From IMG/VR virus record IMGVR_UViG_3300030330_002507, positions 1 through 32,656 of that record: a DNA stretch of 32,656 nt, one strand, 5' to 3'. Shown here one piece after another: positions 11,936 to 28,476 of the stretch. The notes under the pieces were generated by a model. The model was not told the DNA's origin. It searched no databases and was given only the letters and a program-made list of their open reading frames with translations. The stretch is from a virus (taxonomy: Duplodnaviria > Caudoviricetes). The position numbers and the translations under genes are program-made. Within the stretch, counting starts at the first letter, position 1. The number at the start of each line of letters is the position of its first letter.

Positions 11936-12142
11936 ATGGAGGAGGTTTTTAAATTAATAGAGGGCTATGGATTGCCCTTAGTTTTATTGATTGGAGCTTT
12001 ATATGCCTTATATAAATTTTTCTTTTTTTCTATTCACGAGGTTAAAAATACGTTCTCAAAACACCACGAAAAAAACGCTGAAAATATGCAAGAATTGAAA
12101 GAAAAAATTAACATTATTTTAGAATTTATTAAGAAAAAATAA
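11936..12142 (+). CDS. Small membrane protein, holin-like (one TM plus coiled coil)
   Basis: N-terminal TM GLPLVLLIGALYALYKFFFF, helical tail and basic C-terminus, a BhlA/UviB-like layout. Confidence 0.5.
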   Translation: MEEVFKLIEGYGLPLVLLIGALYALYKFFFFSIHEVKNTFSKHHEKNAENMQELKEKINIILEFIKKK

Positions 12143-12169
12143 TTTAACATAATATAAATTATATAAAAA
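12142..12169 (-). other. dif-like XerCD recombination site
   Basis: Minus strand reads TTTTTATATAA-TTTATA-TTATGTTAAAT (11-6-11). The XerD arm is identical to E. coli dif, the spacer differs at 1 of 6 from TGTATA, and the inner ATAA of the XerC arm is conserved. Intergenic. Confidence 0.75.
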
Positions 12170-12284
12170 AAACTTTTATTTTTCTTATCAAGTGAATTGA
12201 TTGTATCGTAATAAAAGAAATTTTTAGTATTAGGATAAGCCAGATAGGGTAAAGTTCCTTAAACGGCTTAAAAACAGCTTTAAA

Positions 12285-12473
12285 ATGAAAATAACAGAAA
12301 CTAAAGAAACTCAGCAAAAAAGGTTAAATATTTGTAAAAATTGCGAACATAGAAGCAATAGATTTTTAGCTATTTTTAGTGCTGATAGTTGCTCAATTTG
12401 TAAATGCAATTTAAAAGCAAAAACAAAAATGAGTAAAAATTTTGGAGGTAAATGTCCAATAGGAAAATGGTAA
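12285..12473 (+). CDS. Small Cys-rich zinc-binding protein (DUF6171-like)
   Basis: RLNICKNC...CSICKCNL..K...CPIGKW pattern. Confidence 0.65.
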   Translation: MKITETKETQQKRLNICKNCEHRSNRFLAIFSADSCSICKCNLKAKTKMSKNFGGKCPIGKW

Positions 12474-12535
12474 AATTAACTTTTAATTGTTTAAAATTAT
12501 TTTAAGTTGGTATTACCGATTACAAAGTTTGATAT

Positions 12536-13244: not shown

Positions 13245-13529
13245 ATGTATATAACTAAAGAAATAAAATTAAACTTTAAAATAGAGAAAGGAGAGGGAAC
13301 TCCTTATCAAGTTGTTTGTAAACAATCAGGAATGACTATCGGTTGTTATTCTAAAAAAGAAGCAAAGCAATTAAAAGACAATTGGGATAGCTGGGAGTTT
13401 GCAGATTTATATTCAAAAGTTGGTTTAGATACTTTAGGAATTAAAGAAAATGATATAGTAAAGTTTTGGACTAAACCTCACGGAAAAAATTATACTGAGG
13501 AGGTAGTTATAGATATGTTAAATGTTTAA
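13245..13529 (+). CDS. Hypothetical protein
   Basis: 94-aa ORF behind a promoter and leader, overlapping the MTase start. Confidence 0.7.
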   Translation: MYITKEIKLNFKIEKGEGTPYQVVCKQSGMTIGCYSKKEAKQLKDNWDSWEFADLYSKVGLDTLGIKENDIVKFWTKPHGKNYTEEVVIDMLNV

Positions 13530-14574
13530 TTACGATTGGACTTTAAAAGAAGCTAATTTCACTAAAGACAAAGGGAAAGTATTTAGTTGCTTTGCTTGTG
13601 GAGGTGGCTCAACGATGGGCTATAAATTAGCTGGATTTGATGTTATAGGGATAAACGAGATTGATCCTAAAATGGCTGAGATATATAAAACTAATCATAA
13701 TCCTAAACATGCCTTTATTGAACCTATACAAGATTTTGTTTGTAGAGACGAATATCCTAAAGAGTTATATAACTTAGATATATTAGACGGCTCTCCTCCA
13801 TGTTCAAGCTTTAGCTTTGCTGGGGCAAGAGAAAGAGATTGGGGAAAAAAGAAAAAATTTAGAGAGGGGCAAGCTGAACAGGTTTTAGATAGTTTGTTTT
13901 TTGATTTTATAGAGTTAGCTTGGAAACTTCAACCTAAAATAGTTATAGCTGAAAATGTTAAAGGTTTATTATTAGGTAATGCTAAACAATATGTAAAGAG
14001 AATTTATGAGGACTTTGATAAAGCTGGTTATTATTGTCAACACTGGTTATTAGATAGTCAATATATGGGAGTTCCTCAAAGGAGAGAAAGAGTTTTTTTT
14101 GTTTGTATAAGAAAGGATTTAGCTACTCCTTTTTTAACTCAAATGAATTTATTTGATATATTACCTAAATTAGATTTAGAGTTTAACGATAAACCTATCT
14201 TATATAAAGAGATCGTAGATGAGGAGGACAAAACAGAAGCTCCTAACACAGCCGAAACTTATAAGCTTTATAATGCAGTAGAAAGAGGGAGGTTTTTAAG
14301 AGAAGCCCACCCTAAAGGACACTTTTTTCAAGAAAGGAGATTAGATTGGGATATGGTTTGTTCTACTATTATAGCTGGTAGTAGTGGAGATTTCCACCCT
14401 GATATATATAGGAGATTAAATAAATCAGAATTATTAAAAGCAAGTAGCTTTCCAAGAGATTATAACTTTTTAAAAACAGGGCATAAATATGTTATGGGAA
14501 TGTCAGTTCCTCCTATAATGATAGCCAGAATAGTAACTGAAGTTTATAATCAATGGCTATCTAAAATAAATTAA
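13522..14574 (+). CDS. DNA (cytosine-5)-methyltransferase, orphan
   Basis: Motif I FACGGG, motif IV GSPPCSSFS, motif VI ENVKG, motif VIII QRRERVF, motif X GMSVPP; no adjacent restriction endonuclease. Confidence 0.93.
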   Translation: MFNYDWTLKEANFTKDKGKVFSCFACGGGSTMGYKLAGFDVIGINEIDPKMAEIYKTNHNPKHAFIEPIQDFVCRDEYPKELYNLDILDGSPPCSSFSFAGARERDWGKKKKFREGQAEQVLDSLFFDFIELAWKLQPKIVIAENVKGLLLGNAKQYVKRIYEDFDKAGYYCQHWLLDSQYMGVPQRRERVFFVCIRKDLATPFLTQMNLFDILPKLDLEFNDKPILYKEIVDEEDKTEAPNTAETYKLYNAVERGRFLREAHPKGHFFQERRLDWDMVCSTIIAGSSGDFHPDIYRRLNKSELLKASSFPRDYNFLKTGHKYVMGMSVPPIMIARIVTEVYNQWLSKIN

Positions 14575-25480: not shown

Positions 25481-25993
25481 ATGTCAAAGAAACCAAGCTT
25501 AACAAATAGAGAAAGATTAAAGCAACTTTATATACACTATAATTTAAATAGAGAGGATATTTTTACTCATGATAAATTTGGATATGTAATGTTAACAAGA
25601 ACAGGGGTAGAAAAAATAATGGCTCATGATAATATTCAAGTCAGCTATCAAAAAGAATATTGCACAAATGAGGGAGCTTGCTATATGGCTACTGCAATAA
25701 GAGGAGATGTTAAAATAGAAACTTTAGGATCAGCTCATAAAGGGAACTGCAAAATTGCTTATTATCCGGAGATGGCTGAGAAACGAGCTAAAGCCAGAGC
25801 TGTTTTAATGTTAGCTGGATTTTATGAGATCGGTTGTTATAGTGAAGTTGAAGCTGATGAGTTTCATAGAAATAAATCTAATACAAAACCTCAAGAAAGT
25901 GGATTAGCTGAGGAAGTAGCGAAGCTAAATAGTGGGACAGGTTTAGCCGATACTATGAGAGAATATGCAGAACAGGGAATTGGAGGGCAATAA
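25481..25993 (+). CDS. Putative single-strand annealing protein/recombinase
   Basis: TRTGVEKI and EMAEKRAKARAVL...YSEVEADEF resemble Rad52/Sak/Redbeta-like annealase cores; located in the replication module. Confidence 0.5.
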   Translation: MSKKPSLTNRERLKQLYIHYNLNREDIFTHDKFGYVMLTRTGVEKIMAHDNIQVSYQKEYCTNEGACYMATAIRGDVKIETLGSAHKGNCKIAYYPEMAEKRAKARAVLMLAGFYEIGCYSEVEADEFHRNKSNTKPQESGLAEEVAKLNSGTGLADTMREYAEQGIGGQ

Positions 25994-27834: not shown

Positions 27835-28476
27835 ATGAATAAAGAAAGAAACTTCTTAGGGATTTGGATACCTAAAAACATATATCTTAATCAAGAATTG
27901 AGTTGGAGTGAGAAAATTCTATTAGTAGAGATTGAAAGCTTAGATAATGAAAATGGTTGCTTTGCTTCAAATGATTACTTTGCAGATTTCTTAGGAGTTA
28001 CTAAGACAACTATCTCAACTTCAATTAGTAAGCTTAAAAAATTAGGATTTATAGAGCAGGTTTCTTTTGATGGTAGAACCAGAGTTATTAAAGTTATAAG
28101 CTCAGAGTTTAAAAAAACCGAAAGGCAGAGTTTAAAAAAACCTAAAGGCAGAATAAAGAAAAATTTAAAACATAATAATACAAGTAATAATACAACTATA
28201 AATCATATATCATTAAGGGAGCAAAGATTTAAAAATGATGTTTCTTTATTAGACGCCGATCTTAATACTCAAAAAGAATTTATTAGCTATTGGACAGAAA
28301 AAAATCCTAAAGGAACTAAAATGAAATTTGAAATGGAAAAAACATTTGATATTAGTAGGAGATTATTAAGGTGGCAAACCAATTCTAAAAAATGGAATAC
28401 TCAAAAAAGTAAATCAACTATAAAAACCTCAGCTGAGAGTTATATGAGTGCAAGATCAAAACTATTAGGATTATGA
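27835..28476 (+). CDS. Replication initiator (N-terminal HTH_36-like domain)
   Basis: LSWSEKILL.EI.SL...GCFASNDYFA.FLG.TK.TIS..ISKL...GFI, basic linker, C-terminal F..YW.E domain. Confidence 0.75.
   Translation: MNKERNFLGIWIPKNIYLNQELSWSEKILLVEIESLDNENGCFASNDYFADFLGVTKTTISTSISKLKKLGFIEQVSFDGRTRVIKVISSEFKKTERQSLKKPKGRIKKNLKHNNTSNNTTINHISLREQRFKNDVSLLDADLNTQKEFISYWTEKNPKGTKMKFEMEKTFDISRRLLRWQTNSKKWNTQKSKSTIKTSAESYMSARSKLLGL

Follow-up and report, generated by a model that had tools for sequence, protein, structure and literature searches.

Phages that lack an integrase generally pass for lytic, and the assumption is that they have no need for site-specific recombination. In phage P1, the circular DNA of a tailed phage is resolved site specifically by Cre-loxP, and the phage encodes its own recombinase together with a partition system; in contrast to P1, no recombinase was detected in the phage described here. 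The chromosomal dif sites of Bacteroidetes (Kono et al. 2011, PMC3025954) have the same 11+6+11 layout as the phage site, which agrees in 26/28 positions with those of Amoebophilus, Cytophaga, and Dyadobacter. According to the cited excerpts, cer of ColE1 and psi of pSC101 (PMC5357621, PMC6312765) likewise provide a replicon that has no recombinase with a core for host XerCD, next to which a stretch is conserved, and the IMEX (CTXphi, VGJphi, TLCphi, dif-type double-jelly-roll phages, and enterogokushoviruses; PMC5357621, PMC12715192, PMC7062461) likewise carry a dif-like site and no integrase. A strong gyrase site is also carried by pSC101 (PMC6379681); par and psi are separate on this plasmid, which offers an analogy for an element beside a dif-type site.

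The window is the whole of IMG/VR record IMGVR_UViG_3300030330_002507 (positions 1 to 32,656; 32,656 nucleotides), from a marine tailed phage of the Caudoviricetes. A 111-bp repeat at the contig ends, with 1 mismatch, closes it to a 32,545-bp circle, and the completeness rating of the contig is 100%, which bears out the claim of an earlier sequence-only reading that the genome is complete and circular. Terminase, portal, protease, capsid, and tape measure are encoded (Pfam and PHROGs on 51 ORFs), and the capsid matches those of Bacteroides and Parabacteroides phages at 25 to 27%. The plus strand holds all called genes. One small HTH is present, while ORF calls and Pfam revealed no divergent repressor or lysogeny module among the called genes, and Pfam and PHROGs found no partition genes among the 51 ORFs. 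The features discussed below are as follows.

11936 to 12142, plus strand: 68-aa ORF, whose stop codon meets the XerD arm
12142 to 12152, minus strand: XerD-type arm of 11 bp, identical to the arm in published Bacteroidetes dif sites
12153 to 12158, minus strand: 6-bp spacer TTTATA, host type (TAAATA in the closest relative)
12159 to 12169, minus strand: XerC-type arm, inner 5 bp host-like and outer 6 bp T-rich, overlapped by the A-tract repeat
12160 to 12179, plus strand: 20-bp A-tract repeat, one of six copies, with no -7 motif after it
12179 to 12293, no strand assigned: noncoding element of about 115 bp, gap-free, with phased TTAAG blocks, abutting the XerC arm
12285 to 12473, plus strand: 62-aa Cys-rich ORF, 3' of the 115-bp element, which served as the synteny anchor
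25481 to 25993, plus strand: 170-aa protein, a Sak-type strand-annealing lead (score 0.90, family on 19% of members)
27835 to 28476, plus strand: replication initiator, with two 17-bp direct repeats inside (28103-28119 and 28126-28142)

The 28-mer that had been reported at 12142-12169 on the minus strand reads exactly as claimed and is present in a single copy in the genome. Its two 11-bp arms and 6-bp spacer agree with the layout of host-phylum dif; the XerD arm, which had been called perfect, indeed equals that of published Bacteroidetes sites, and the spacer, noted earlier as one base from that of E. coli, is the commonest among the listed host-type sites. The site begins the 142-bp gap between the 68-aa and 62-aa ORFs, directly after the tape-measure gene. 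It had been described as noncoding, which is right for the part inside the gap but not for base 12142, with which the stop codon of the 68-aa ORF ends. Because terS is 13.3 kb away, the site is unlikely to lie in a terminal redundancy. The 68-aa ORF itself recurs across at least 80 viral loci whose gene contexts are very different, and in its many other gene contexts the dif-type site is absent.

Alignment with predicted host dif sites, a check proposed earlier, gave a positive result: the inner 22 bp are identical in 5/19 published Bacteroidetes dif sites (supplementary table of PMC3025954), and the best match of the 28-mer among 59 host sites was 26/28. We also sampled 201 genomes of the order Flavobacteriales, the order of G035 (locus L441, an uncultured Flavobacteriaceae). 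The arm pattern was present in 113 of them, as a single match in 101 of the 113; the exact inner 22 bp of the window occurred in 35/201, and a reversed control pattern in 8/201. The XerD arm alone appears by chance at a mean of 0.14 per shuffled window (seen in 13/100 shuffles), and the relative G030 holds such a chance copy within its rep gene. For a 22-bp core with 12 variants, which was set after viewing the host list and the relative, about 1e-5 occurrences are expected in the window under models of order 0 to 4. Judged by its sequence, the site is a Flavobacteriales/Bacteroidota-type dif mimic, real and beyond chance.

One feature had escaped the sequence-only reading: the XerC half shares bases with a 20-bp A-tract repeat, which occurs six times in the genome and in 0/100 shuffles. 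The copies start at 12160, 13197, 23551, 23592, 29200, and 29231 and include two tandem pairs. Several other copies precede what we take to be Bacteroidota-type -7 promoter motifs, and the repeat is a possible operator or upstream element. A promoter was rejected as the full explanation of the site, since the local copy has no -7 motif and the repeat spans only the XerC half.

The earlier claim that the genome has no recombinase was borne out at every level searched. Neither a tyrosine nor a serine recombinase was found by Pfam and PHROGs on the 51 ORFs or by NCBIfam on 30 of these, six-frame searches with PF00589, PF00239, and PF07508 returned no recombinase while their controls worked, and a recombinase motif scan of the genome found nothing. 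PDB sequence searches with three hypothetical proteins gave no match. A hidden integrase was thus rejected at the profile and motif level.

In contrast to chromosomal dif, the phage site lies on a 32.5-kb phage, has a T-rich outer XerC arm, and is joined to an element that none of the host loci match (0/21). The conserved flank is about 115 to 130 bp, whereas that of cer and psi is about 180 bp in the excerpts cited above; moreover, copies of the element are found that have no core beside them or are reversed, and the carrier is a tailed phage. We did not class the site with cer and psi, which are marked by dependence on PepA with ArgR or ArcA and by selectivity for resolution. The IMEX, as the cited sources portray them, are small, nontailed, and seen as prophages, whereas this phage is tailed and no prophage was found; in TLC it is the XerD side that is lost and the XerC side that stays, and the relatives here do the reverse. 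Neither the paired inverted attP of CTX type nor the degenerate XerD side plus XafT of TLC type is matched, as there is one site with a perfect XerD side and no XafT-type Pfam match. The phage was not classed as an IMEX because integration was not observed. In its working the site would resemble those host-Xer sites that mobile replicons carry.

What is new here is the pairing of the dif mimic with the 115-bp element; in titles and abstract openings, a search that left most subscription journals outside, we found no description of a dif mimic with a wrapping element in tailed phages. Positions 12179-12293 align without gaps with seven other phage loci, and a profile was built from the 8 sequences. 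In L378 and L380, whose surrounding genes are different, the element accompanies a full dif, and the distance between the two differs from that in the window by no more than 1 bp. It stands at a fixed spacing from the XerC arm in three lineages; elsewhere it occurs alone or reversed. The profile found extra copies near dif in loci outside its build (among them L341, L313, L320, and L345) and further copies, of which several are reversed at 84 to 152 bp center to center from dif and others have no dif nearby. The element was counted in 8/71 loci, a count that is partly circular because the profile included several of those loci. Its conserved columns are in phase and its GC profile is periodic (2/2000 nulls), with 9.5 bp as the strongest period and 10.75 as the third. 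A structured RNA or attC-like hairpin was rejected, with 0 consensus pairs over 14 sequences and no Rfam match. Taking of the whole element from the host terminus was also rejected, as the element was found at 0/21 host dif loci and there is no gyrase register there.

In length, gap-free alignment, phased A/T blocks, and central register, the element resembles strong gyrase sites (Mu SGS and the 130-bp Topo-Seq motif; PMC6379681, as far as the excerpt goes). We scored it with the gyrase matrix of table DS10 of that source, which comes from E. coli. The Mu site scored 18.2, the highest value of its 3-kb locus and at most 4 bp away from the cut annotated there, against 10.9 for the window element, the 11th peak in the genome. 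The element was therefore not classed as a strong gyrase site, which would have the top matrix score in its replicon; one of its arms is also far more regular than the other. On the other side, 7/15 elements have their best gyrase score at one offset, the element middle (12231-12234 in the window), and a 130-bp motif centered there would span about 12168-12297, ending at the XerC arm. At this shared register the 15 elements reach a mean of 8.1 versus 4.3 +/- 0.7 (0/500 column shuffles), and 11 elements reach 8.3 versus 5.5 +/- 0.7 (0/300 motif shuffles); aligned capsid DNA controls reach 7.5 and 6.5 versus the 8.3 of the elements. Among 50 dif loci, the near gyrase score exceeded the far mean in 22, and the near block ranked top in 11 versus 4.1 expected. 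The element is a candidate gyrase or other DNA-wrapping site with a predicted center at 12231-12234, and we regard gyrase itself as possible, with clear reservation. A Topo IV site was rejected, as periodic arms are not part of the motif of that enzyme. When the element matrix was scanned on Mu, the top matches clustered at the gyrase site, but they were out of register and AT biased, and we did not count them as support. Mu-like gyrase scores of 16 to 20 were seen 110 to 220 bp from dif at L363:5232, L368, L332, L348, and L351.

Conservation was followed in 24 relatives retrieved with a neighboring gene. The site was present in 1/24, the gap itself being missing in most of them, and PF00589 was found in 0/19. 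The expectation that relatives would keep the site failed for the complete distant ones (0/12), which makes it an optional feature and not a clade-wide lifestyle, and succeeded for the closest relative, L001, in which both arms are 11/11 and the spacer is 4/6, with two bases changed. These shared arms prove little, because the window and L001 are 86 to 93% identical. In the capsid tree the window falls in a starred clade of six rows, five of whose members were scored for the site (L152 was not covered): the window and L151, which is the L001 record, have the full site, L153 has only the XerD arm, and L154 and L155 have neither arm. The element without the site occurs in L154, L155, L004, and L005. 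The XerD arm is 11/11 in L001, L153, L453, and L378. In the XerD-only genotypes L153 and L453, it remains at the same spacing beside an XerC arm of 6/11; these two share the 28-mer at 28/28, whereas their elements agree in only 78/116 positions with each other and in 74 to 76/116 (about 65%) with that of the window. This pattern makes the site an optional feature, of which the XerD arm lasts best.

The TAAATA spacer of L001 was found in 0/401 Bacteroidota genomes and in none of the listed Flavobacteriales-order sites, and yet it occurs in 20/90 viral sites and in 8/34 loosely built flank clusters. Spacers vary within 8/13 multimember flank clusters; in the search pattern only two spacer positions were variable, so it is uninformative on the bases toward XerD. 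A spacer that changes freely fits well with binding or with recombination of self by self, although it is compatible with integration too, because VGJphi accepts a one-sided mismatch (PMC5357621, in the part that treats this phage).

A dif mimic in a recombinase-free tailed phage supports the use of host XerC/XerD, as had been proposed earlier in two branches, integration or resolution of the phage's own DNA. The dif mimic and the missing recombinase stand, and of the two branches the own-DNA one fits better. Action on phage DNA is preferred because the spacer of the closest relative has no match in the host genomes searched, no prophage or junction was found, all genes are on one strand, and there is no lysogeny module. 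A dif copy beside a conserved 115-bp element, in a phage with no recombinase gene detected, points to host enzymes that likely untangle the phage circle rather than to prophage formation. We therefore favor, with confidence just short of even, a reading in which the dif site and the 115-bp element form a cis-acting, plasmid-like resolution module for the phage's own circles. The genome would circularize and the circle would replicate from the initiator-gene repeats; recombination or replication would yield dimers or catenanes, and host XerC/XerD would cut and rejoin two phage copies, with XerD activated by FtsK, an Xaf-like factor, or some other means. The spacer need not match the host, because the crossover would be self by self. 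The element would supply supercoiling or an accessory-protein wrap, with a host protein, possibly gyrase, bound beside the site, and the module would be optional, decaying to an XerD-only form or being lost. Several observations speak against the resolution module: the site is missing from all 12 complete distant relatives, the element stands without it in L154, L155, L004, and L005, the outer XerC arm is T-rich and overlaps a genome-wide repeat, the best host site agrees in 26/28 positions, the gyrase fit is moderate, no partition genes were found such as a stable plasmid state would lead one to expect, and the XerD-only form of L153/L453, probably a poor recombination substrate, is yet kept at 28/28.

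The repeats in the initiator gene are a candidate origin, about half a genome away from the dif-type site. The point opposite them (28103-28142) is 280 to 320 bp from the site, which is chromosome-like; the antipodal placement is about 1.9 kb off in G030, and in other phages the site is near rep, so that it is a weak signal. As for a source of dimers, the 170-aa protein is a weak lead for a Sak-type strand-annealing protein, and a second search with it gave no significant match.

XerD-only forms and additional lone arms would be explained if the site were a binding scaffold and not a crossover, at which bound XerD (plus XerC if its arm is intact) would recruit a type II topoisomerase or another terminus protein to the element or position it there. 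Conservation is highest in the XerD arm, and 5/73 viral loci have a further arm standing alone no more than 150 bp from dif, besides 2 inverted full pairs, against 2 arms in 484 kb of far-flank comparison. The element end carries a CTAG-type block 22 to 23 bp from the XerC arm, and 10/59 host dif loci have one at 23 to 24 bp; however, these host loci come from one related genome group and have no gyrase register. We consider this scaffold unlikely, because in E. coli the scaffold role belongs to XerC, whereas Topo IV binding is slightly inhibited by XerD on its own (PMC4865107, excerpt), the Topo IV motif lacks periodic arms, and the perfect host spacer of the window is not needed for binding alone. 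The hosts with the CTAG block (L546-L561) are mostly small Flavobacteriales-order genomes, and their block is a candidate for a site of binding or cleavage and may also hint at the host. As for the inverted full dif-core pairs, they are about 60 to 90 bp apart (L349:5001-5134 and L396:301-406), and the related contigs L321, L346, L355, and L381 break off at most 65 bp away from the site.

That the site is an attP, through which the phage integrates at host dif via XerCD in the manner of IMEX, seems improbable to us, even though the window agrees with host dif at every base of the spacer and of the XerD arm and dif motifs are sporadic among gokushoviruses (PMC7062461, excerpt). Two short patterns of limited sensitivity found no relative in GTDB genomes, and the 6 GTDB matches to a flank-plus-arm pattern were all unrelated. 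Contigs leaving the phage at 12142-12169, which the sequence-only reading had suggested looking for, were not found: in run X4, one contig runs unbroken across 12085-12500, its 4 differences all fall outside the site and the element, and it shows no joint. Reads placed at 80% likeness were mostly from other phages, with no listed piece spanning the stretch; low-depth read joints near the site had short sides and were set aside, and small-share sequencing runs were not taken as evidence. No attL or attR at host dif was found in these shallow searches, and the contigs of 45 homologs of one phage protein are at most 36.6 kb. The spacer of the closest relative has no host match (0/401), and neither a divergent repressor module nor an XafT-type match is present.

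Across IMG/VR the core occurs in about 130 stretches versus 6 for the reversed pattern, a count that overstates phage-borne sites because host dif beside proviruses is included. From the 80 listed loci, 30 records of at least 25 kb carry the core; it lies more than 1.5 kb from both ends in 15 of them and within 870 bp of an end in the other 15, and the latter placement speaks for an attP. PF00589 was found in 0/18 such large core-bearing records and a terminase match in 8/20. Against the attP reading, five provirus records that end 100 to 720 bp from a dif-type site (L312, L328, L365, L369, and L374) look, from their ORFs, like Mu-type prophages beside host DNA and not like relatives of the phage. 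Some of the five have a response-regulator-like gene beyond the site, and a repeated dif-side placement of Mu-like proviruses is odd for a transposable phage.

A relic or by-product with no present function, be it a dif that was captured or is decaying, or an old XerD arm for which the A-tract repeat happened to supply the missing half, is very improbable: it fits the loss or degradation of the site in 3/5 scored starred-clade members, the XerC half within the six-copy repeat, and the weak weight of arms shared with L001, but the 17 core bases beyond the repeat are expected 2e-6 times, the XerD arm stays 11/11 at about 65% element identity, and the viral core counts and interior placements given above stand against it.

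A broader form of the resolution module is a portable, protein-free "mini-terminus" in unrelated marine Bacteroidota tailed phages, in which a gyrase-type wrapping site fused to dif or to a lone XerD arm would bring host Xer and type II topoisomerase to the circles of the infecting phage; we think this unlikely. If the favored reading is true, integrase-less phages of this kind would depend, in a way not apparent from their genes, on XerCD and topoisomerases of the host, and the dif mimic with its wrapping element would be a short marker of host phylum. The 150-bp cassette is directly testable on a plasmid, and the XerD-only variants bear on a possible nonrecombining role of Xer on foreign DNA.

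A separate cluster of 26 phage loci (L311, L315, L325, L333, L334, and kin) has the dif core beside a small-terminase homolog, with three spacer types. In the window, a C5 DNA methylase gene (13522-14574) separates the late-regulator region from the head protease; in L153 it is missing from this place.
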